Source of the DNA: a virus
Lineage: Duplodnaviria > Heunggongvirae > Uroviricota > Caudoviricetes
Length of the DNA: 64,000 nucleotides
Reading direction: 5' to 3' (one strand)
IMG/VR virus record: IMGVR_UViG_2654587772_000002
The notes beneath the pieces were generated by a model, which saw nothing but the letters and a program-made list of their open reading frames with translations, did not search any database and had not been told where the DNA came from. Positions 1,886-38,819 of the stretch are shown here, piece after piece (within the stretch, counting starts at the first letter, position 1; every line of letters starts with the position of its first letter). Position numbers and translations under genes: made by a program.

Positions 1886-3369
1886 TGGCCAGAAGTTGCG
1901 TAACGGATCCACGTTGGCGCGAGCTGGTGGCGCTATATCGTTATGACTGGATTGCTGCCGCTGATGTTTTGTTCGGCAAAACACCTACCTGGCAGCAGGA
2001 TCTGATTATTGAGTCTGTGCAGGAACAGGGTAGCAAGACATCTGTTTCGTCTGGTCACGGTACCGGGAAATCAGACATGACTTCTATCATGATCATGTTG
2101 TTCATAATCATGTATCCCGGTGCCCGCGCCATTATCGTTGCGAACAAAATTCAGCAGGTAATGACCGGTATATTCAAGTACATCAAGATAAACTGGGCTA
2201 CTGCCACCAGCCGTTTTCCATGGCTTGCTGATTATTTTGTTCTGACAGAAACCGCTTTCTATGAGGTTACTGGTAAAGGTGTATGGACTGTAGTACCGAA
2301 GGGCTTTCGTCTGGGAAGTGAAGAAGCTCTCGCCGGTGAACACGCAGATCATCTTCTGTATATTATCGATGAAGCCTCCGGTGTCAGTGATAGAGCTTTC
2401 GGTATCATCACTGGTGCTCTTACCGGACAGGATAACCGCATCTTATTACTGTCACAGCCTACACGCCCAAGCGGCTATTTCTACGATACTCACCATAAAC
2501 TGGCCAAGCGTCCTGGTAACCCTGATGGCGTTTATACGGCGATCACGCTTAACAGTGAGGAATCACCGCTGGTAACGCCAGCATTTATCAAAATGAAGCT
2601 GGCGGAGTACGGCGGGCGTGATAACCCTATGTACATGATTAAGGTACGCGGACTATTCCCTAAATCACAGGATGGCTTCCTTCTTGGACGTGATGAGGTT
2701 GAACGTGCGACGCGGCGGAAAGTCAAGATTGCCAAAGGATGGGGCTGGCTTGCATGTGTGGACGTTGCTGGTGGTACAGGACGGGATAAGTCCGTTATCA
2801 ATATCATGATGGTGTCCGGCCAGCGAAATAAACGCCGTGTAATCAACTATCGAATGCTGGAATACACAGACGTTACAGAAACGCAGCTTGCCGCCAAAAT
2901 TTTCGCAGAATGTAATCCTGAGCGATTCCCAAATATCACCATAGCGATAGACGGCGATGGGCTGGGTAAAGCAACGGCGGATCTGATGTACGAGTATTAT
3001 GGTATTACCGTACAGCGCATACGCTGGGGTAAAAAGATGCATAGCCGTGAAGATAAGAGCCTGTACTTTGATAAACGTGCTTATGCCAACGTTCAAGCCG
3101 CAGAGGCCGTAAAATCTGGTCGTATGAGACTGGATAAGGGTAATGAAACTATTGAGGAAGCGTCGAAAATCCCTGTAGGGATTAACTCCGCAGGTCAATG
3201 GAAGGTGATGAGTAAGGAGGATATGAAGAAAAAACTCAACCTGCACTCACCAGACCATTGGGATACATATTGTTTCGCTATGCTGGCGGATTATGTTCCC
3301 CAGGACGAAGTGCTTAGCGTCGAAGACGAAGCGCAGGTTGATGAAGCTCTGGCATGGCTTAATGAATGA
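1885..3369 (+). CDS. pacB: Terminase large subunit PacB (494 aa)
   Basis: 494-aa ORF translationally coupled to pacA (ATGATTAATGG overlap). Confidence 0.8.
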
Positions 3370-3372
3370 ATA

Positions 3373-3389
3373 CTTGCTCTAATAAATTG
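3373..3389 (+). promoter_or_regulatory. C1 operator-like site (CTTGCTCTAATAAATTG) preceding the immI-like module
   Basis: 15/17 match to C1 operator consensus. Confidence 0.5.
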
Positions 3390-3569
3390 TGTTTTTTAAC
3401 TGCCGATGTTACATTGAGCCTGACCTCTTGCGCCTTGAGGCATTTTCGGTTTATGCTTATCAGGCACCTCAGTAAAACGGGTGCCGGGATTGAGACCCCG
3501 GATAATGCAAAAGGCGACACAGACGCCAAAAGCGTCTTTTTTTGTGTCATGCCATCGCACAGCCATACG

Positions 3570-3700
3570 TAGCGTTTAGCTCAGAGATCAATGGTAGTGC
3601 TGGCTGGGCTGCCGAAAGGCAGGCCGGTTCCCTTTTGCGCCGGTAGTCTCAACCCAGTCAGTGCTACCGCCATTGAGATTGAGACCTCACGCGGTAGCTC
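3570..3700 (+). ncRNA. Candidate c4-type antisense RNA (structured, tRNA-like leader) upstream of icd-ant
   Basis: Non-coding stretch with extended internal complementarity (ATCAATGGTAGTGCTGG vs CAGTGCTACCGCCATTGAG) and a segment (CAATGGTAGT) complementary to the icd leader/SD region (GCTGCCATTG); position matches the c4-icd-ant arrangement of P1 immI. Confidence 0.3.
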
Positions 3701-3728
3701 CTTAAATTAGCAAAAGGAGGCTGCCATT

Positions 3729-3950
3729 GTGGCTACTATCCCTACCCCAGCTCATCCTGAATTTATCTGGCGCTTTTACTCCTGCCAAAAACGTCACTAT
3801 CACTTCGTTATTGCACCGACAGAAGATGAGGCACGTTCTCAGCTTCCGGATGCTCCCTGTATTTTCTCTGCCCGCTTTTCTACCGATTCGCGCAATTCTC
3901 TCAGTTACTGGTGCCTCCCTGTTAACGCTTCTGCTCAGGAGGGACTATGA
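3729..3950 (+). CDS. Icd-like small protein (73 aa), translationally coupled to ant
   Basis: GTG start 10 nt after strong SD AAAGGAGG; stop overlaps ant ATG (ATGA); size matches P1 icd. Confidence 0.4.
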   Translation: MATIPTPAHPEFIWRFYSCQKRHYHFVIAPTEDEARSQLPDAPCIFSARFSTDSRNSLSYWCLPVNASAQEGL

Positions 3951-5049
3951 GAACGTCATTAGTCACCCGTGAAGAGATGATCGAGGCAATTGAACAGCAC
4001 ACTGCCTGTATCAGTACCAGGGATATACCGGGCGTTATTGCCAACTACTTCATGATCACCAAACAACTTTACCGGAGAAAGGACAAATACGCGGTTCACC
4101 GCATTCTGCTAACCGATATCCGTGAATACCTGCTCGAACAGGGTCATCTGAATTACGCAACCGTCGCAGCCGAAGCACGCAAGGAGGCACACAGAATGAA
4201 AGCAACTAACGTTAAATCAGAAAAAATTTATGCACCTTCAGTTCAGGAATCGGAACTGGTGGTTGTTCAGAATCAGCCGGATGAAATTCCCGTTCTGGAA
4301 TGGCAGGGAGTACGTGTCGTGACAACCGAAACTCTTGCTAGAGGGTATGGTGTCGATGAAGCCAATATTCGCAACAATTTGTCTCGCAACCTTGACCGCT
4401 TTGAAGAAGGTAAGCATTACTTTCTTCTAACTGGTTTAAAATTAAGAGAATTTAAGAACAGAGTAACCGGAAGTTACTCTGTTGGTAAGAACGCCAGAAG
4501 CCTTACACTCTGGACAGAGCGCGGCGCTGCACGCATGTCTAAGATCGTGGACACAAATGAAGCATGGGCATTCTTTGAAAAACTGGAAGACAGCTACTTC
4601 CGGCAAAAAGAACAGCAACCGGTTGCAATCCCCCAGACGCTTCCAGAAGCTCTGCGCCTGGCTGCCGAACTGGCTGAACAAAAGAACAGAAAGCCCACCA
4701 GCTAAATCAGCAGCTGGTGGCCGCCGCTCCTAAAGTCGATTTTGCCGACCGGGTATCAGTAGCTAAAGGGATCCTGATTGGGAATTTTGCAAAGGTTGTT
4801 GGACTTAAGCAAAACGCGCTGTTTGCCTGGTTACGGGAGAACGGCATCCTGATAGCGTCCGGTGGACGTAAAAATGTGCCGTTCCAGCAGTACATCAATG
4901 CGGGGTATTTCACGGTGAAAGAAGTGGTGCTGGATGATGAAGATGGCTACCAGATACGGTTGACGCCTCAATTAACGGGTAAAGGCCAGCAGTGGTTGAC
5001 GCGTAAACTGCTCGATGCTGGCTTGTTAAAACCGGTGGCGGCTGAATAA
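3947..5049 (+). pseudogene. Antirepressor Ant-like gene (ORF6N-type N-domain + KilAC-type C-domain) split into two ORFs (3947-4705 and 4717-5049) by a frameshift near 4678-4705
   Basis: Domain-like motifs recognised in translation (VRVVTTETLARGYGVDEANI...; PKVDFADRVSVAKGILIGNFAKVVG...); frame 1 is open from 4678 and continues the reading sense of the upstream ORF. Confidence 0.5.
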
Positions 5050-24241: not shown

Positions 24242-25516
24242 ACGGCAAACATTCCCAATTCACAGAGTCCGACCTAAACCACATGAAGCGGCTTAGGAAT
24301 TACAGACTCTCCAAGGGCTAACACTGCCAGCCCGGCAGCTTTTATATTACGGGCCGCGTTAATATCACGATCATGCTCTGCGCCACATTCCGGGCAGTGC
24401 CATTTACGAATATTAAGAGGCATTTTTTGCATGGTGAAGCCGCAACTGCTGCAACGTTTGGAAGAAGGGAAATACTGGTCGATAGCGACAATGCTACGTC
24501 CACCCCATTCTCCTTTGTACTGGAGTTGGCGTACAAGTTCGCTCCAGCCTGCGTCAGCTATTGCTTTAGACAGCTTCGGGTTACGGATCATGTTTTTCAC
24601 TTTAAGGGATTCGACGCAAACAACTTGGTTTTCGTTAATCAGTTTGCGGGACAACTTATGCAGGTTATCCATCCGACAATCGACTATTCTCGCGTGGAGG
24701 CGGGCAACCTTTAAACGTGCTTTGGCGCGGTTCTTTGAGCCTTTTTGTTTCTTGCTCAATCTGCGCTGTAACACTGCTAATCGCTTCGCGTATTTAGCGT
24801 TGTGTCGAGGATTGCCAGTTTTAAAACCGGTATCGGTGACGAACAAATCTTTTAAACCAATATCAATGCCGACCGTGGAAACGGTGATCGGCAGTGATAC
24901 AGGCTCAAACTCGCAGAGACAGGATACAAAATATCGTCCGGCAGCATCCCTGGTGATAGTGACAGTGGATGGAGCAGACGGCAACGGACGGCTCCAGCGA
25001 ACATCTAACGGCTCTTTGCTCTTTGCCATGTACAGCTTGCCGTCACGGTATTTAAATGCGCTGGCAGTTAGTTCTGCGGCCTGTTTATGCCGCTTGCTCT
25101 TAAAAACTGGGTATGCAGCACGCCCGGCGAAAAAGTTAGCAAAAGCCGTTTGTTGGTGGCGCAGAGACTGCTGGAGGGGGACGCAGGAAACGTCATTCAG
25201 CCAAGCGAATTCTGGTTCTTTTTTCAGTGCCGTTAATTTGGCGCTGGCTTGTGCATAGCCGACCCTCTCATGGCGTGCGTAGTACGCATCGGTGCGCCAG
25301 CGAAGGAGGCTGTTATAGACAAAACGCACACACCCAAAAGTCCGGGCTAATAGCTCGGTTTGTTCGGGAGTTGGATAGAATCGATATTTATAGGCACGCT
25401 TCATGTTCTATATAATACATTGAAACTAATGAGTATATAAATGAATACACGGACGAAAATGTTATCAAAGCCAATATACCAACAGACATTAGGTAAGGTA
25501 GCTGGAGGGCAATATA
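24242..25516 (-). mobile_element. IS200/IS605-family tnpB-only element (IS1341-type) inserted between portal and protease genes
   Basis: Intact TnpB ORF fills the intergenic space; no tnpA; boundaries approximate. Confidence 0.55.
24274..25404 (-). CDS. tnpB: TnpB (OrfB) RNA-guided endonuclease-like transposase accessory protein (376 aa)
   Basis: N-terminal MKRAYKYRFYPTPEQ, RuvC-like core and C-terminal zinc finger CSSCG...CPECG. Confidence 0.85.
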   Translation of the reverse strand: MKRAYKYRFYPTPEQTELLARTFGCVRFVYNSLLRWRTDAYYARHERVGYAQASAKLTALKKEPEFAWLNDVSCVPLQQSLRHQQTAFANFFAGRAAYPVFKSKRHKQAAELTASAFKYRDGKLYMAKSKEPLDVRWSRPLPSAPSTVTITRDAAGRYFVSCLCEFEPVSLPITVSTVGIDIGLKDLFVTDTGFKTGNPRHNAKYAKRLAVLQRRLSKKQKGSKNRAKARLKVARLHARIVDCRMDNLHKLSRKLINENQVVCVESLKVKNMIRNPKLSKAIADAGWSELVRQLQYKGEWGGRSIVAIDQYFPSSKRCSSCGFTMQKMPLNIRKWHCPECGAEHDRDINAARNIKAAGLAVLALGESVIPKPLHVV

Positions 25517-30045: not shown

Positions 30046-33022
30046 TATTTAGCTCCTTTGCCACACCTAATAACAGTTCCAGCAATCCGTCACCATTCAT
30101 CAGTGATGCGGCAGCGGCCTCTTTGTCATGATACAACTGAAGAGCCATAGAGAACACTTCCGTTGCTGACGTTTTGGAAATTGTCGGAGATTTGTGTCGA
30201 AATTTACCAGAATTACTCACTGAGACAGGCGGGTATACCTTCGCCATATAAATATCACTCAATCGAGATCTGAAGCACCATTCAGGCTTGCCACGCCCAC
30301 CGATATTAACGAAAGATGGCTTATCCCCTTCAACATTGGCCTTCAGGAATGACCTGGCTTTCTCTAACAAACCCGGGTTACTGTACTCAAGATGATGACC
30401 CAGCTCGTGCCACAGTGCATTTGCATTTTCATCGTGCAAATCGACAGCAACAACACCATTAAGATTTGCATACGCCCTACCCTTGTGGTGAATTACCCTT
30501 GATAAGGTTGATATTTTCCCGCCGGTCAGGCGATAAATATCAGCAAGTTCCTTGCGCAGGTCTATTCCACCATTCTGTCCAGCGCGGGCTTCTTCCACTT
30601 CTTCCGTGATAAAAGAGTCGGCCCACTCAAGAGCTTTTTCTTCTGATACGGATGAGTTGGTGATCGCACTGTTCATGGCAGATAACACTTTCTCGTAGAC
30701 CGAATCCATACTTCGCTGATTCATTTGCCAGCGTTTCTGCGGGATATATGAAAATCGATTGAGTAGCTGGTCAAGCTGCTCAAGTTCTTCTTCACTGACA
30801 TGCTTTTTAGCCTCACCAATAATGCTGGGGAGAATAATGCCGTTAGGATTAAACGCTCGCGAAAGGAAGAGTTTCAGCGCCCCCATGCCCTCCGATGCTT
30901 CAATATCACCAATAACACGGTTAACAATGGCCGCATTCTTCGGATTAACGTCCTCCAACGCCCTAGCTACGATTTGCAGGGACGATACGACCTCACGCTG
31001 CATATCCGTCCTGATCTCATCAATTAACTCTGGCGTTATGCCGTGCTCTTTAAGGATATCCCGGCCTTCCGCCGTTACCCCATCGATATCACCGACATGT
31101 TTATTAACACGACTTTGCAATGCCTTAAATGCCTTCAGAATTCCACGGGCATCATCCGCTTTACTAACGGCCTTCCTGAATGCTGGCAAGAAGTCTGAGT
31201 TAACCTCATTTTGTTGATCGGCCCACTGAATGGAGGCTTCCTTCATCTCGTCCAGAGTCAGATCACCCAACGCGGTATGGTCTGTGAATATGAGCGATAA
31301 CCTCTGAACCATTTCTGCCAATGGTGATACTGATTGCGCCGCGCTAAGGAATGCTTTCACCCTGGTTGGGCGAATGGAAAACCAGTCAATAGCTGGTGGC
31401 ATATCTCCGTTTTGTATCGCCTGCGCTATCTCATCAAAGCCGTCGCGCCCAAGGGAGGATGCGTGATTTAACAATCCGCGAAGTAACGAATTGCTGATAC
31501 CGAATAATCGGCACCATTTATTCACGTCGGCAACAGGCATTCGAACAAAATGCGCAAGCACTTGTACAAGCTGTTCATCCTGGGGATCTCTACGGGAAAG
31601 CAGCCTTATCAGATGAATAATGTCTTTGATGCCGGATGACCGATGTAATAGCAAGCTGGTATATGGAGCAACACCGTTGTAACTACCGCCGGAAACGGAC
31701 TCGAAAAGACCGCCTGATATCCCTTGCATGCCTTCGTTTTCCAGTTCCTGAGACACCTGGCGAAGGATATCCTGTAACGACACATCACCACCGCCAAACA
31801 TATCCCCCAGCGCCTGGCCCTGGTGCTGTAACTCATCATTGATACGTTGAGCCATCAATTTAAAGGCGGTGGCCATACGCTTCGCGCTACGGTTATTCGC
31901 GACGATGAACAACGCGAGAGCTTTCACTTCCGGGGCTGTTTCGCTGAACATATCCCCCTGAGCAATGACATCGGTAATATGCTGGCCTGACTCCTTCGAT
32001 TGCCTTACCAGGTCTACCGCATCTTTCAATGCCGCCAGCGCCTTTTTATCGAGGCTATCCGCTGTCTCAATGCCATCAACAATAGTTGTCACAGCCTGCT
32101 TGTGCGCTTCTCCTGATAAAGCCTGCATCTGGACAAAATCATTGGCTGCCGCATTAAGCGCCGTCAGAACATTACGCATATCCGGATCAGGTTCTTCTGC
32201 AACCATCCTTACCAGGCGCGCATCCTTATATGCCTTGGCAAAGATCGCGTTTTGTATACGGTCTACAAGTTGCCGCGTTGGTCGCCCATCTTCCGTTACA
32301 AGGCCAGCAGCCTGTGTGGCACCAACTTGCGTCATGAATCCGCGAATAAACGCGTCATTACTGCGGCTAAGCAGATCTCCACTTTCTGACGGGTTAAACA
32401 ACGCCATCATCGCCGGTGTTATGCTGTCGGCATCAACAAAAGCCTTTTCACTGGCTGCCATTTCCTGGAGATCAGAAATATTTGAGTCCTTGGCAAACTG
32501 AACACGGTCAGCCTTCGTTAACCGGCGGCGCACCAGTACCGGAGCCGTCATTGATTCAACCTTTTCAGGCCGTATGCCGAATTCGGTCGCATGTTCAATC
32601 AGGTACTCCCGATACCGATCCGCATTACCGTCCTGATAGGCTTTAATGATCCCCATGGTCCGCCCATTACCTGACTCAACGGCATTGTCCTCACCAATTA
32701 TTGGCGCGCCATGGCTGGATAAACCGGAATCGGTAAGCTGGGCAGGACGCAAATCCTTGGATATCTGGTTGACCTGAAGAAGGCTGGATGCGCGGGTCCG
32801 GTCGCGCGGCTGAAGTTCCTGGGGATAGTCTGGATTAATTTTCCCATCCAGAGTATTGGATACCAAAAGAACTGAGGCATCGACGATATCAAACGCTGTT
32901 TTTACCTCGTCTCCCTTCGCTGTCACCACATACGAAACCCGCCCGTAATCGGGCAGGTTTTTTAGCAGCTCGATCAGCGTTTCTATGCTGGTGGCCATCA
33001 CCACCTGATCGCTTAAGCTCAT
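30035..33022 (-). CDS. ddrB: DdrB-like antirestriction-associated virion protein (995 aa)
   Basis: Size and position downstream of darA-ddrA. Confidence 0.55.
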   Translation of the reverse strand: MSLSDQVVMATSIETLIELLKNLPDYGRVSYVVTAKGDEVKTAFDIVDASVLLVSNTLDGKINPDYPQELQPRDRTRASSLLQVNQISKDLRPAQLTDSGLSSHGAPIIGEDNAVESGNGRTMGIIKAYQDGNADRYREYLIEHATEFGIRPEKVESMTAPVLVRRRLTKADRVQFAKDSNISDLQEMAASEKAFVDADSITPAMMALFNPSESGDLLSRSNDAFIRGFMTQVGATQAAGLVTEDGRPTRQLVDRIQNAIFAKAYKDARLVRMVAEEPDPDMRNVLTALNAAANDFVQMQALSGEAHKQAVTTIVDGIETADSLDKKALAALKDAVDLVRQSKESGQHITDVIAQGDMFSETAPEVKALALFIVANNRSAKRMATAFKLMAQRINDELQHQGQALGDMFGGGDVSLQDILRQVSQELENEGMQGISGGLFESVSGGSYNGVAPYTSLLLHRSSGIKDIIHLIRLLSRRDPQDEQLVQVLAHFVRMPVADVNKWCRLFGISNSLLRGLLNHASSLGRDGFDEIAQAIQNGDMPPAIDWFSIRPTRVKAFLSAAQSVSPLAEMVQRLSLIFTDHTALGDLTLDEMKEASIQWADQQNEVNSDFLPAFRKAVSKADDARGILKAFKALQSRVNKHVGDIDGVTAEGRDILKEHGITPELIDEIRTDMQREVVSSLQIVARALEDVNPKNAAIVNRVIGDIEASEGMGALKLFLSRAFNPNGIILPSIIGEAKKHVSEEELEQLDQLLNRFSYIPQKRWQMNQRSMDSVYEKVLSAMNSAITNSSVSEEKALEWADSFITEEVEEARAGQNGGIDLRKELADIYRLTGGKISTLSRVIHHKGRAYANLNGVVAVDLHDENANALWHELGHHLEYSNPGLLEKARSFLKANVEGDKPSFVNIGGRGKPEWCFRSRLSDIYMAKVYPPVSVSNSGKFRHKSPTISKTSATEVFSMALQLYHDKEAAAASLMNGDGLLELLLGVAKELNNAD

Positions 33023-35929: not shown

Positions 35930-36350
35930 CCTGTGCGAGATTTATTACGTAACTTCTGCGGATTTGCTGAGTAACAGGGAAAATCCGATACAACGGGTTA
36001 ATGAACGAGTCGCCATGCGTAACCATGACGTTGAAATGCCACAGTCGCTCTCCTTTACCCATATATTCAGTGGGTATGTACAACCATTCACTGTTTTCGC
36101 CCTGTTCAGCCGACGTCAGACAACGTTGTTCGCCTTCAATCACTGTCGTCGGCTTCTGAACATCGCGGATCCAATATCTGACCGTTGCGCCGCGCAAAAA
36201 CGGGAATTTAGACCGGTATTTGAACGGCACCCGAATGAAACCCGGTTTAATTTCCACATCACCAAGTTCTAAATGCGTGATGTCCTTGCGTTTTAGCAAA
36301 TAGCGATCGGCTAAGGCTAACGCAAGAACGCATACACCCCAGCCAATCAT
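35907..36350 (-). CDS. lydB: LydB-like antiholin (147 aa)
   Basis: Coupled downstream of holin gene. Confidence 0.55.
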   Translation of the reverse strand: MIGWGVCVLALALADRYLLKRKDITHLELGDVEIKPGFIRVPFKYRSKFPFLRGATVRYWIRDVQKPTTVIEGEQRCLTSAEQGENSEWLYIPTEYMGKGERLWHFNVMVTHGDSFINPLYRIFPVTQQIRRSYVINLAQDVSDDEK

Positions 36351-36676
36351 TTCCCACCTCCCTTTTTCACCAAACTTGTAAGAACATTCAGAATGCTATC
36401 GATATTCACTCGTTTCATCCCTGAAATCACCTCATGACCGTTATTGCTGGCTATCGTTACCATTAAGTACGTAATTGATAACTCCCAGCCTTCGTGTTGC
36501 CCCAATAGGTACGCCACCGCGCCAGCTGTCACTGCAACAAAGATCTCCGTAACCAATCCCAACAAGTTGCCAGACTGGCGACCATCTCGGACATCCATCA
36601 GGAACGTGCCTATCCCACCAATTACTGAAAGCAGGAGCGCAATAGCAACTGGAGCTAATTCCTGTGTGTCAAGCAC
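36347..36676 (-). CDS. lydA: LydA-like holin (109 aa)
   Basis: Multiple TM segments in 109-aa protein, SD GAGGGA upstream. Confidence 0.65.
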   Translation of the reverse strand: MLDTQELAPVAIALLLSVIGGIGTFLMDVRDGRQSGNLLGLVTEIFVAVTAGAVAYLLGQHEGWELSITYLMVTIASNNGHEVISGMKRVNIDSILNVLTSLVKKGGGK

Positions 36677-36778
36677 AAGTTCCCTCCTACGTTGTCAGGA
36701 GGTAATGGTATGCAAAGTAACTTCTCAACCGGTCATGTTACTTGACATCCTCCACGTCCTTTAGAGCGTGGAGGATGT

Positions 36779-37600
36779 GTGCGCCCAGCATGGGCGCGAT
36801 CTTGGAGGTGAAAGCCCTCCCGCGAGCTGACCACAGCGAGCGAAAGGAAGTGCAACTGCGTGAGGGCGGCTAGGCGTGGGGAGGAAGCACGGAATGAACC
36901 CGTGAGCCGATGAACAAGAATCGGATATGAGGCGCGATGGAGCAAGGCGAGCAGGCACATCACTGCGAAGCTTTCGTGACAAAGTCGCGTAGATCCGACG
37001 GTTGTGCGGGGAAGGATCGCGTTCTTACCTGGGGAGTTCTCGCCTCATGCCTGAAAGGGCAACGTCGTAAGACGGAGCGAGAAGTCAGCAGAGGCCGTAG
37101 TAGTCAGGACTCCGACGAAGGGCCGAACGAGAAGGAAAGCCAAAAGATATGACTCTTGACAGGACATTGCGTCAGAAGCCGGGGAAGCCCGGTACGGACC
37201 CGCATGCCGGGTGGTGTGGCAGGGGCGCAGCCTTGTGCTCCCCCCTATGCCGATCAAGCAGAACATTGTGCTGGGCCTCTGACGCATCTCCTTGATGGTC
37301 TTGGCATCGTGCTTAAGTGGATTGGTGTCGTCTCTGATAGGCTCATGGAGGCAGAATGAAACTCAAAAATCCGGGACAGCACGCAAAACAGGCTGCACAA
37401 AAAGCGCAGGTTGCGTAGGAGTGGAATCCCGCTCCCAAAAAATGGTGCAGAAGTTGCGGCAGTGGTCATCCGACGCACTGGAAAATAACAAACCCGCCGT
37501 GACCAGAATCGGAGGCCTGAGGGAGTGACCGTAAAACCGGATAACCCAGGCAGCAAATACCCGCTGGATGAGGCATGGTTCCGGCAGATAATACCGAAAA
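36779..37600 (+). ncRNA. GC-rich non-coding block with group II intron-like 5' end (GTGCGCCCAG), preceded by a perfect hairpin (36746-36777); possibly ORF-less or degenerate intron or other large structured RNA
   Basis: No credible ORF on either strand across ~0.9 kb; 5' end resembles the Ll.LtrB intron start as I recall it; many GNRA-type tetraloop motifs; 3' boundary and domain V not identified. Confidence 0.3.
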
Positions 37601-37674
37601 CCGCCAGACACACTGGATAATCAGTAGAAATAACCCATTAAAATCATTATAATAATTGGGCACATTATTATATT

Positions 37675-38238
37675 ATGCTGAATAATAGAGACATGAATAT
37701 TAATGAACTTAAAGACTGTATTCACTATGAAGTAATCGGTAGCGAGCGTCCTTTCTCCTGGCGAAAGGCAATTGTTCGCGCAATAAAACATAGAAGAGTT
37801 CGTTATTTATTTTGGTGGCGCATAGCCAAATACCTTTTTGATAAAGGCGGATACTGTCGGAAGATTGCGGGGAAAATGGAACGTTTCATTCTTGATAAAT
37901 ATAGTGTAACAGTCCCTTTAACTGTAAATATAGGGAAAGGCTTTGATATTTCTTATCTCAACGGTGTTGTTATCGGTCACAAAGTAACCATTGGTGAAAA
38001 TTGTTCAATAAAACCAGGGGTAACTATTGGGCTACGTGGTGATTTTAATGATATGGATATTGTTATAGGACATAATGTGACCATTGGTTGTAATGCCACC
38101 ATTCTTGGTGGCAAAGTGCGTATAGGAAACAATGTCACAATAGGTGCTCATGCATTGGTATTGCATGATATTCCTGATGATTCAACATTCATCACTAAAT
38201 TTCAGTCTGAAGTTATCTGCTCGTCCTCTTGCACATAA
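37675..38238 (+). CDS. Hexapeptide-repeat (left-handed beta-helix) O-acetyltransferase, CysE/WbbJ-like (187 aa)
   Basis: Tandem hexapeptide repeats ([21 protein letters not shown]...[32 protein letters not shown]); AT-rich. Confidence 0.7.
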
Positions 38239-38819
38239 CCCTGATTCATCAGCTCTGGCCATACGATATCCGGAGCTGTACTGGTGTCAATTCGACTCAC
38301 TAATACTCTGTATTTTCTCCAGGAATCCAGTTGTGAATTTTCCTCGGTTGTTGCTATTTCAAGATTAACTGCATCCTGCAGAATTGCGATGTTATCTGTT
38401 GCCTCCTGAATCAACCTTGCCTTTTTCTCTTCCGCTTCCCGTATCCGAAACAGTTTTTCTGCTTCCTCATCCTTCACCCAGGATACGCCGTCCCACTTCT
38501 GATACTCCCCTGCTGGCGACAACCAGGTGACATTCTCTGGTAACGGTCCGAGTTCAGAAATAAACAACGCGTCCCCCGATGCCACGTCATAGACCGTTTT
38601 ACCACGATGGTCTTCAACAATAATCCATGATTCATTTTCACTGTTAAAAACTGCCACAAAGCCAGCAGGAATTTCCGGTGGGGCGATATCTGTAGAATTA
38701 GCTGGTAGCCCTGTATGAGGTGGAATATATGCGTCACCTTCACCAATAAACTCATTAGTTCCGGCGAGCAGGTTATAAATTTTTACAGTACGTGATTGTT
38801 CACTCATTCTGAATGCCAT
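38202..38819 (-). CDS. Tail fibre assembly chaperone (Tfa/U-like), 205 aa
   Basis: N-terminus MAFRMSEQ...[42 protein letters not shown] matches the lambda/E. coli Tfa family. Confidence 0.85.

Follow-up and report, generated by a model that had tools for sequence, protein, structure and literature searches.

Group II introns of class IIC have an AGGAA motif as their hallmark, and their domain V has a distal stem that is 2 bp shorter and a CGC triad that replaces AGC (PMC1702495). The AGGAA motif is a conserved bulge of the epsilon-prime region. Further traits of class C are an IBS1-EBS1 pairing of 3-5 bp that immediately follows a stem-loop of the 5' exon, an EBS3-IBS3 pairing that serves the 3' exon, the lack of an EBS2/IBS2 pairing, and an RT/maturase that has no endonuclease domain. 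One sub-lineage, IIC-attC, has moved from terminators to the attC stem-loop, and ORF-less group II introns, which are rare in bacteria, usually occur alongside relatives that encode an IEP (PMC4424553). For Enterobacteriales, the accessible part of the survey by Leclercq and Cordaux (2012) records 111 group II intron fragments in 55 distinct copies, and gives only Di.ze.I1 and So.gl.I1 as class C introns (PMC3522654). We found nothing relevant in the literature on IIC introns at IS200/IS605/IS609 ends or in P1-like plasmids; the nearest paper describes an IS200/IS605 element adjoining an integron array with IIB introns (PMC7923331).

The window analysed here is a stretch of 64,000 nucleotides from a Caudoviricetes record in IMG/VR, and the host of the element that we describe is a P1-like phage-plasmid. 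An earlier note, made from the sequence letters alone, had flagged ~0.9 kb between lydA and an acetyltransferase gene as a group II intron-like RNA. We conclude that positions 36779-37254 within this block are very probably a mobile group IIC intron in a dead, internally deleted form, passively inherited in P1-like plasmids.

Results

Composition of the GC-rich block

The GC content of the window is 0.565-0.595 over ~36700-37400, as against 0.35-0.40 downstream and ~0.44-0.53 upstream. The description of this block as GC-rich and lacking a credible ORF holds: the longest ORF within it is 119 aa, and a Pfam search with a 78-aa ORF at 37292-37525 gave no match. The block is a composite of an intron (36779-37254, plus strand, 476 nt), a pseudogene fragment (37259-37612) and a promoter/leader region (~37625-37674). 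The proposal that the whole ~0.9 kb is an intron was correct for about half of it, and the remainder is a decayed tail-gene fragment.

To the left of the block lies P1 backbone. The P1 late promoter LPdar, which drives lydA-lydB-darA leftwards, is located at 36705-36723 on the minus strand (31212-31230 in the P1 annotation), and window positions 36700-36736 are 100% identical to P1 31207-31243. P1 homology ends at ~36736-36740, and LPdar is the final P1-homologous piece before the block. No copy of the block was present in the phage collection searched, where matches were limited to its first 37-40 nt, which are P1 backbone.

To the right of the intron, 37259-37612 (plus strand) is a fragment of a P2-like phage tail tape-measure gene, decayed by stops and frameshifts. 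An internal stretch of the L005 tape-measure gene is 74% identical to it in nucleotide sequence, and the translations have QNIVLG...KMVQK...WSSDA..ENN..KPA...PGSK.PLDEAWFRQ in common, yet interrupted. This fragment would suit an explanation of the whole 0.9-kb block as a decayed protein-coding gene. Such an origin is extremely improbable for the block as a whole, since 36779-37254 matches RNA covariance models and the ends of a known intron, and only 45 nt of it are of coding origin; the decayed-gene reading is refuted for 36779-37254 and valid for 37259-37612 alone.

The intron and its empty site

Two Rfam group II intron models matched over their full lengths and above their gathering scores. 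The domain I core at 36860-37024 (plus strand), which contains the AGGAA motif and the EBS1 loop, matched group-II-D1D4-3 (RF02001; model positions 1-170) with 95.5 bits and E = 1.3e-19 (gathering score 32). Part of domains II-III at 37042-37123 (plus strand) matched group-II-D1D4-1 (RF01998; model positions 1-84) with 46.8 bits and E = 8.5e-07 (gathering score 35).

The boundaries were defined by an empty site. A P1-like plasmid without the intron (L004) joins 36778 straight to 37255, with no target duplication. The intron thus delimited runs from GTGCG at 36779 to GCCGAT at 37254, which fits the conserved 5' GUGYG ... AY 3' ends; the GTGCGCCCAGCATGGGCGCG start is located at 36779, and GTGCGCCCAGCA is kept at the 5' end across the whole intron family. 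Its 5' 414 nt and its 3' 68 nt show 94-96% identity to the corresponding ends of a 1.83-kb full-length E. coli intron (L002/L003). A full-length E. coli intron lies at 2049098-2050929 of NZ_CP169399.1. The covariance-model matches and the exact empty site together bear out the suspicion of a group II intron.

Alternatively, the block could be some other structured RNA, or a leader that regulates the acetyltransferase gene, for example an intron remnant with an outward promoter. The acetyltransferase gene follows the block directly and is encoded on the same strand, and IIC-attC introns are reported to have outward promoters (PMC3001079). The 476-nt RNA also folds better than its shuffles (MFE -193.3 kcal/mol versus -175.8 +/- 6.3, z = -2.76), although such surplus structure is expected of an intron remnant anyway, and no other Rfam family matched at E<=1 within 36300-38300. 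The sigma-70-like promoter candidate of the hexapeptide acetyltransferase (37625-37653, plus strand; TAGAAA-17-TATAAT, 10/12 matches) is downstream of the intron, and ~37625-37674 is the promoter/leader of this gene, whose CDS reaches 38238 with a Hexapep Pfam match at 37675-38235. In a scan of 36600-37750, promoter-like sites were confined to 37625-37686, which begins 370 nt after the end of the intron, on the far side of the pseudogene fragment, and no plus-strand site was found upstream of the intron. Moreover, the acetyltransferase module is unchanged in intron-less alleles. We therefore consider a regulatory leader or other structured RNA very improbable. Given that alleles without the intron occur and that the acetyltransferase is served by a promoter of its own downstream of it, the intron remnant probably has no role in expressing neighbouring genes.

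Assignment to class IIC

The motif AGGAA at 36882-36886 aligned to the conserved AAGGAA of RF02001. EBS1 was placed by the Rfam alignment in a terminal loop, GGC-ACATC-ACTGC, as ACATC at 36957-36961 (plus strand). It is complementary over 5 bp to IBS1, GATGT at 36774-36778 (plus strand), which forms the last 5 nt of the 5' exon, and the EBS1 loop co-varies with the end of the 5' exon among ~55 relatives (for example TTTTCA|/TGAAAA, GAGTTCG|/CGAACTC and TTCATG|/CATGAA). The first base of the 3' exon, C37255, is a candidate IBS3; in a scan for EBS3, the leading candidate, G36992, pairs with the +1 exon base in 46/60 sequences with wobble allowed, and a second column scored nearly equally.

The full-length relative in L002 encodes a 456-aa IEP, WP_000186915.1, which is a group II RT/maturase (TIGR04416, 419.8 bits). 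It scored 433 bits to the GsI-IIC RT, versus 149 to a IIB and 134 to a IIA protein (LtrA, to which this lineage is only distantly related), and aligned with the GsI-IIC RT through to its end, with no extra domain. All full-length relatives compared (47/47) have a domain V with a CGC triad with G.U and a 3-bp distal stem. Nearly all relatives have a stem-loop upstream, and most are located directly after intrinsic terminators. Membership of class IIC, which the earlier note had guessed from insertion next to a hairpin, is thus supported by comparison with relatives: their IEP is closest to solved IIC RTs, their domain V is of the IIC type, and they lie mostly after terminators.

Loss of the IEP and damage to the ribozyme

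The earlier note had found no reverse transcriptase ORF, and what remains of one is a stub at 37149-37193 (plus strand) comprising the ATG and first 15 codons (MTLDRTLRQKPGKPG). A tblastn search with the L002 IEP gave 93% identity over residues 1-15 and detected no further IEP or RT sequence in the window. The stub ends at a deletion junction with GCCCGG microhomology (37187-37192, plus strand), where the two BLAST segments to the full-length intron overlap and IEP codon 15/16 is joined to the base of domain V. The missing 1350 nt comprise everything in the IEP beyond codon 15, the 3' side of the domain IV stem, and the domain V base. This junction is identical in six compared copies, namely the window and five of six plasmid loci (L009 left out).

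The 5' strand of the domain IV closing helix, CGAGAAG, is still present at 37128-37134 (plus strand), and its 3' partner CTTCTCG is deleted and absent from the window. Most relatives have this pairing, and compensatory changes are seen among them (CAAGAAG/CTTCTTG, CGAAAAG/CTTTTCG and CGAGAG/CTCTCG).

Domain V had been reported as not clearly found. It is indeed damaged and missed by Rfam RF00029 (Intron_gpII, D5/D6), yet a homologue is present at 37185-37214 (plus strand), of the form AAGCCCGGU-ACG-GACC-CGC-AU-GCCGGGUGG. RF00029 gave no match in the window or in an intact relative, even at E<=10, which reflects the short IIC-type domain V and not a missing one; shortness and damage together explain why the domain was overlooked. 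In the family model of domain V, 99.6% of cells are paired, with compensatory CG/UA/GC changes. In the window, the two basal pairs have gone, and with them the first triad position; the 3-bp distal stem has a mismatch at its first pair. These three of twelve pairs (8-37, 9-36 and 17-26), one of which adjoins the bulge, are intact in 47 relatives and broken in the window alone among the 48 sequences. The same lesions are common to the compared mini copies, as we call the internally deleted introns. The deletion junction turns the CGC triad of the window into AGC; AGC is the canonical triad of IIA/IIB introns, an observation which counts against reading the element as a dead relic.

Domain VI was identified at 37218-37251 (plus strand), with a bulged A37247 located 7 nt before the 3' splice site, within the 7-8 nt usual for a branch point. 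Its outer helix is GGCA/UGCC or, by compensatory change, GGGA/UCCC (26:22), and the domain is also supported by folds of full-length relatives. Domain VI of mini copies has a single internal C:C mismatch relative to full-length copies.

The conserved parts could be those of a functional ORF-less mini-intron, spliced and perhaps mobilised in trans by the IIC maturase/RT of a full-length copy elsewhere. Intact parts include the boundaries, the EBS1/IBS1 pairing, the domains I-III that Rfam recognises and domain VI, which keeps its bulged A, and the habit of bacterial ORF-less introns of co-residing with related IEP-encoding introns (PMC4424553) would provide for this. The stub also retains the IEP start region. 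In other introns, this region is the binding place for the IEP. Against such activity, the three broken domain V pairs are invariant or compensated in the 47 relatives, the domain IV closing helix is lost and the window has no RT. Full-length relatives occur in just 3/5426 E. coli genomes, and the mini copies show one site and one junction, which lends no support to mobility after the deletion. We therefore regard a functional mini-intron served by a maturase in trans as quite unlikely. Without a maturase or a domain IV helix, and with a damaged catalytic hairpin, neither splicing nor movement is likely, and the intron in the window is most likely splicing-dead, as judged from its predicted structure. 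As an internal-deletion derivative with a damaged catalytic domain, it fits the description "ORF-less or degenerate" that had been offered for it.

The insertion site is an IS200/IS605 right end

The 5' exon is a palindrome at 36742-36778 (plus strand), with a left arm at 36742-36756, a loop at 36757-36766 and a right arm at 36767-36778. A perfect hairpin had been noted here with an 11-bp stem and two bases between it and the intron. The hairpin is real (fold -23.5 kcal/mol, z = -5.55, equalled by 0/200 shuffles), but its perfect stem is 12 bp (36745-36756/36767-36778) and abuts the intron directly. The uninterrupted site is a palindrome with 15-bp arms, the right of which is split by the intron and resumed by CAA at 37255-37257 (plus strand), the first bases of the 3' exon. 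CGTGGAGGATGTCAA has an exact inverted match at 36742-36756 on the minus strand.

The sequence from 36751 onward, together with the CAA, corresponds by homology to the final ~31 nt of an insQ/IS609-type right end (...TCCACG-N10-CGTGGAGGATGT^CAA), so that T|CAA is the end of both the IS and the palindrome. The right end finishing in GGATGTCAA is intron-free in 4880/5426 E. coli genomes; in these genomes the insQ element ends in the same tip and hairpin, and flanks diverge just after TCAA. The flank of the window intron matches that of the full-length intron in L002/L003 at 26/28 bases. tnpB lies directly upstream in L002, L003, L011, L015, L019 and L025, whereas all that the window retains of the right end is its final ~31 nt, with no tnpB. 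The hairpin is therefore a remnant of an insQ/IS609-type (IS200/IS605) right end. There is no second copy of the right-end motif in the window.

Two other origins of the hairpin were rejected. It is not an intrinsic terminator, as it is not followed by a T-run and was not reported by a terminator scan, and it is not the end of an IS within the window, as the window's own tnpB (24274-25404, minus strand) encodes a protein only 32-41% identical to the relevant TnpB.

The intron-less plasmid L004 also carries the right-end remnant. The plasmid ancestor had this ~31-nt insQ/IS609-type remnant (hairpin plus GGATGT^CAA) just beyond LPdar, fused to the tape-measure fragment and the acetyltransferase/tail-fibre module, and the IIC intron sits exactly between GGATGT and CAA, with EBS1 ACATC pairing with the preceding GATGT. 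No E. coli genome has an intact junction of IS right end and tape-measure sequence that covers both halves of a chimeric query.

Since the flanks resemble chromosomal IS sites (26/28 nt upstream, 3 nt downstream), flanks and intron could have moved together. On this account the intron never homed into the plasmid: the IS remnant came in together with the intron, which had already undergone its deletion, through recombination with an intron-bearing IS609 copy, and the "empty" plasmids lost the intron or descend from an intron-free IS. The high mosaicism of P1-like plasmids in this region speaks for this account. Nevertheless, the left palindrome arm and the P1-backbone and tape-measure junctions are common to plasmids with and without the intron, which is most simply explained by one ancestral site polymorphic for the intron, and the EBS1/IBS1 match fits retrohoming. 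We consider arrival by recombination unlikely; it would alter the history alone, leaving the identity and inactivity of the element unchanged.

Distribution of full-length and deleted copies

The ~35 plasmid and ~30 genome copies of the mini-intron are all at one site; one plasmid of this kind is pSCEC128 (NZ_MH844525.1). Full-length copies were found in the same 3/5426 E. coli genomes and in 1 plasmid, none at the site occupied in the window. Those mini copies that were compared have copy-specific indels and substitutions, consistent with drift, and show no sign of mobility after the deletion. Because the plasmid copies share junction and site, the deletion most likely occurred once.

Discussion

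We propose that insertion into the ancestral right-end remnant preceded deletion, an order that we infer. A full-length intron, from an E. coli lineage specialised on this hairpin, would have inserted by reverse splicing and reverse transcription. One 1350-nt deletion between two GCCCGG repeats would then have removed the RT/maturase from codon 16, along with one side (3') of the domain IV stem and two basal domain V pairs, and a further G-to-A change at 37194 may have disrupted the short distal stem in domain V. Since then the remnant would have been inherited passively and exchanged among P1-like plasmids, gathering neutral changes. The intron-less allele could in principle be the product of precise intron loss.

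Together, the intron relic and the tape-measure pseudogene make the block a molecular fossil and not a working RNA. This odd GC-rich "non-coding" stretch of P1-like phage-plasmids is accordingly explained as junk, which speaks against annotating it as a new RNA gene or following it up as one. The block also provides a clean natural case, with empty site and donor known, of a bacterial group II intron killed by one microhomology-mediated deletion.

The closest relatives of the intron form a clade located not after terminators but at IS200/IS605 right ends, in E. coli as well as in genomes with such labels as Nitrospirota, Verrucomicrobia, Methylotenera and Burkholderiales, with IEPs 73-86% identical to the E. 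coli IEP. Their insertion point, 3 nt short of the transposon tip (GAGGATGT^CAA), would separate the omega-RNA scaffold of the adjacent TnpB from its guide. The case is evenly balanced that a IIC clade has switched from intrinsic terminators to the IS200/IS605 subterminal hairpin, an undescribed target class. If true, this would be a third kind of DNA hairpin used by IIC introns, after terminators and attC sites, would place a self-splicing retroelement inside a TnpB guide-RNA locus, and would make the fossil in the window a marker of this target class. Intron splicing and TnpB guide-RNA maturation might then depend on, or interfere with, each other.

Compared with described systems, the element resembles B.h.I1 of Bacillus halodurans, O.i.I1 and GsI-IIC in its small ribozyme, 5' GUGCG, short EBS1-IBS1 and AGGAA motif. 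Its intact relatives share with known IIC introns the short-stem domain V with a CGC triad and an En-less IEP near the GsI-IIC RT, and insertion is immediately 3' of a DNA stem-loop. Unlike known IIC introns, the copy in the window has no IEP, no domain IV helix and a damaged domain V, and its stem-loop is an IS200/IS605 subterminal hairpin without a T-run in place of the usual terminator. Loss of the IEP with retention of the ribozyme ends is a feature of other bacterial ORF-less introns (C.te.I1 and the cyanobacterial trans-spliced copies). In contrast to those described as catalytically competent, the window copy has lesions at family-invariant domain V and domain IV positions, and in contrast to those with co-resident IEP-encoding relatives, its cognate IEP is absent from the window.

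As an inactivated, mobile-element-borne and passively inherited remnant, the element is similar to the Enterobacteriales fragments of Leclercq and Cordaux (2012), although neither a class C intron from E. coli nor an IS200/IS605 target appears in the accessible part of that survey (PMC3522654). IStrons also place a self-splicing intron at the end of a TnpB-encoding IS200/IS605-family transposon, near the omega-RNA region (PMC4227781, PMC10690162). This resemblance is positional only, as IStrons have a group I intron built into an IS605/IS607 transposon, whereas in our case the invader of the right end is a group II retroelement. The group IIC-attC introns of integrons have likewise exchanged terminators for the conserved stem-loop of a mobile-element recombination site; the target here differs in being the IS200/IS605 right-end hairpin, 3 nt from the transposon tip.

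The flagged block carries a class IIC group II intron

The GC-rich block at 36733-37660 lies between lydA and a hexapeptide acetyltransferase gene (37675-38238), and had been read in the earlier note as ~0.9 kb of group II intron-like RNA beginning directly after a hairpin. The GC excess was borne out (0.565-0.595 across ~36700-37400 vs 0.35-0.40 downstream), as was the lack of credible ORFs (the longest in the block is 119 aa, and the single ORF tested had no family match). Searches with Rfam covariance models, a check proposed at that time, gave matches above gathering scores to two group II intron domain I-IV models: RF02001 at 36860-37024 (+; 95.5 bits, E = 1.3e-19) and RF01998 at 37042-37123 (+; 46.8 bits, E = 8.5e-07). 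BLAST for the donor element in complete E. coli genomes recovered full-length relatives. In two chromosomal loci (L002 and L003) a 1832-nt intron has a 5' part 94-96% identical to window 36751-37192 and last ~70 nt 96% identical to window 37187-37257, and its ORF is a 456-aa group II reverse transcriptase (RT)/maturase (TIGR04416, 419.8 bits).

A related P1-like plasmid (L004) has matching flanks without the insert: L004 3823-4001 aligns with window 36600-36778, and L004 4001-4503 with window 37254-37750. At the empty site the sequence is ...CGTGGAGGATGT^CAAGCAGAACATTG, with GTGCG...GCCGAT occupying the caret position in the window. Compared base by base, this site therefore defines the intron as 36779-37254 (+), without target-site duplication. 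The group II reading thus stood, with its intron-like 5' start GTGCGCCCAGC beginning at 36779, but the intron occupies only 476 nt, not 0.9 kb.

The intron belongs to class IIC. The intron-encoded protein (IEP) of a relative scored 433 bits against the GsI-IIC RT and 265-313 bits against a further two IIC RTs; its scores against a IIB RT and the IIA protein LtrA were only 149 and 134 bits, respectively. We fetched 80 relatives (IEP identity 60-86%), mostly from Betaproteobacteria and metagenome-assembled genomes, and directly 5' of most of them is an intrinsic terminator (a GC-rich stem-loop, then a T-run). Alignment of 48 intron 3' ends gave a domain V (D5) model with a 9-bp basal stem, a C-G-C triad whose G sits in a G.U pair, a bulge of two nucleotides (A-Y) and a 3-bp distal stem. 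In this model 99.6% of cells were paired, vs 43-56% with partners slid, and compensatory changes were present (CG/UA/GC and GC/CG). Toor et al. (2006; PMC1702495) describe these same D5 traits, CGC replacing AGC and a distal stem shortened by 2 bp, as hallmarks of class IIC; their list further includes an AGGAA motif, an IBS1-EBS1 pairing of 3-4 bp, a stem-loop upstream and the absence of EBS2. The window has AGGAA at 36882-36886, and EBS1 (36957-36961, in the loop GGC-ACATC-ACTGC) is complementary to IBS1 GATGT, the last five exon bases (36774-36778). Loop and exon end show covariation in a set of ~55 relatives (exon/loop TTTTCA/TGAAAA, GAGTTCG/CGAACTC and TTCATG/CATGAA, for example). A covariation scan for EBS3 singled out no one position. 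The Rfam D5/D6 model failed to match even intact relatives, because their D5 is short.

The window copy is a deleted and damaged remnant

Compared with the full-length intron, the window copy lacks 1350 nt. The two matching segments share six bases, GCCCGG (37187-37192), a motif present twice, once following IEP codon 15 and once at the D5 base. The IEP is lost from codon 16 on, leaving MTLDRTLRQKPGKPG, and no other RT was found elsewhere in the window. The closing helix of domain IV (D4), which is backed by compensatory variants in relatives, keeps its 5' strand CGAGAAG (37128-37134) and has lost its 3' strand CTTCTCG to the deletion. The earlier note saw no clear domain V; the 48-sequence alignment corrected this, revealing a damaged D5 homologue. 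Its first bases were lost to the deletion (CCG to AAG). At 37194, a G-to-A change additionally disrupts the pair that opens the 3-bp distal stem, beside the catalytic bulge. Among the 48 sequences, pairs 8-37, 9-36 and 17-26 are broken in the window alone. Domain VI (37218-37251, bulged A37247) is largely intact. "ORF-less or degenerate" was therefore an apt description of an element with its IEP truncated and D5 damaged. Since maturase and D4 helix are missing and D5 is damaged, the remnant has most likely lost the ability to splice or move, although it may retain residual activity assisted in trans. The window element is a IIC intron remnant and most probably inert, and therefore of modest interest by itself.

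The block was found in ~35 plasmids and in 30 of 5426 E. coli genomes. We compared six deleted copies: the window's own and those from five plasmid loci out of six fetched (the 5' junction of L009 was not located). The deletion junction and the G-to-A change are common to all six, which vary by small indels and substitutions (476-483 nt), and all deleted copies occupy a single plasmid site. Full-length copies occur in 3 of the 5426 genomes and in 1 plasmid, none at that site. One insertion and one in-situ deletion, followed by passive inheritance, would account for this pattern. Two changes were seen in the window copy alone, a domain I GCGA tetraloop converted to GCGG at 36868 and a 6-nt deletion near 37000 relative to the other deleted copies and the full-length intron; these are further decay particular to this copy.

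Window 36740-37670 is also 100% identical to NZ_CP007393.1 2150123-2151053 (the E. coli ST2747 "chromosome") and present at 97-99.6% identity in chromosome records NZ_CM169485.1 and NZ_CP080139.1; apparently, in a small number of strains, P1-like elements have integrated or were placed within chromosomes during assembly. Separately, a 225-nt 3' fragment of the intron lineage (93% identity) is present in ~1400 E. coli records, nearly all of them chromosomes, for example between ygiV and parC in NZ_CP032237.1 (L093, 2501-2725). It comprises the C-terminal end of the IEP, the 3' strand of D4, and both D5 and D6, terminates in ...GCCGAT^CAAG, and is therefore an older chromosomal fossil of this lineage.

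The hairpin is a transposon end within a mosaic block

The hairpin preceding the intron was confirmed (-23.5 kcal/mol, z = -5.55), and so was the proposal of a hairpin-adjacent class C intron. The nature of the hairpin required correction: an intrinsic terminator was rejected, as no T-run follows, and the hairpin is a transposon end. In L002/L003 a tnpB gene (NF040570, 224 bits) lies ~40 nt upstream of the intron, and the 28 nt 5' of the intron and the CAA 3' of it are nearly alike in these loci and the window. Searching with this region of L002/L003 assigned the right end, ...TCCACG-N10-CGTGGAGGATGTCAA, to the insQ element, known as IS609 of E. coli K-12; the records themselves say only insQ/TnpB. 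Of 5426 genomes, 4880 have this right end free of the intron, with flanks that diverge directly past TCAA, and the intron is therefore separated from the transposon tip by 3 nt. Of the insQ right end, the window retains just the final ~31 nt. Inverted duplication of its last 15 nt gives a perfect palindrome with 15-bp arms (36742-36778 + 37255-37257), vs only a 6-bp stem in the native IS hairpin. In P1-like plasmids this inverted duplication falls exactly at the end of P1 homology.

The window is a P1-like phage-plasmid, and that homology ends at ~36736-36740. P1 31207-31243, which carries the LPdar late promoter of the leftward lydA-lydB-darA operon (P1 annotation), is 100% identical to window 36700-36736; here the acetyltransferase and tail-fibre genes take the place of P1 lydC, cin and the beginning of the C-segment. 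Downstream of the intron, 37259-37612 is a decayed fragment of a P2-like prophage tape-measure gene, with 74% identity to an internal part of that gene over 37259-37607 and a translation in which recognisable stretches are interrupted by stops and frameshifts. The homology starts 1-2 nt past the TCAA tip, which would fit an IS once inserted in the tape-measure gene; a search of E. coli genomes found no intact junction of IS right end and tape-measure gene. A promoter-like site for the acetyltransferase is at 37625-37653. The block is a mosaic of parts, not a single element.

The window has an IS200/IS605-type tnpB of its own (24274-25404, -; 376-aa ORF), 32-41% identical to the TnpB beside the full-length intron, and the intron's target motif is absent from the end of this element. 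Rfam also matched isrK (58.2 bits) and C4 antisense RNA (75 bits) at 3464-3674 (+); both are RNAs of the P1/P7 immunity (immI) region and so would be expected in a P1-like element.

A clade of IIC introns appears to target IS200/IS605 ends

All 13 closest relatives lie 3' of hairpins without T-runs, and several, in assemblies labelled as different phyla, are flanked by GAGGATGT^CAA. Full-length IIC introns of this clade are inserted 3 nt before the tip of IS200/IS605 right ends, in the loci L002 3170-5863, L003 2998-5862, L011 ~2594-4812, and L012, L014, L015, L018, L019, L024 and L025 (intron starts ~795-825). A tnpB is directly upstream in at least six loci; TnpB ORFs directly precede the introns of L015, L019 and L025, and upstream of the L021 intron there is an IS200-type TnpA. 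The IEPs of IS-end copies are 79-86% identical to the E. coli IEP, vs only 40-65% for the adjoining TnpBs, a disparity in sequence identity that argues for repeated invasion rather than simple hitch-hiking. The insertion point is inside the presumed omega-RNA locus. A weak RAGATH-18 match was seen at L002 3915-3958. Head-to-tail tandem introns were also observed, with a GAT 3' end directly followed by another GTGCGCCC (or TTGCGCCC) 5' end (L018 2656/2657, L088 ~784/785, L065 2597/2598).

We found no description of IIC introns linked to IS200/IS605 ends in the searchable literature, and in a 2012 survey of Enterobacteriales (PMC3522654) Dickeya and Sodalis are the only genera for which class C introns are named. 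The IS-end-targeting clade is a more interesting lead than the window remnant that points to it. In a neighbour-joining IEP tree, built without bootstrap, the IS-end copies group as a single clade, separate from the majority that targets terminators.
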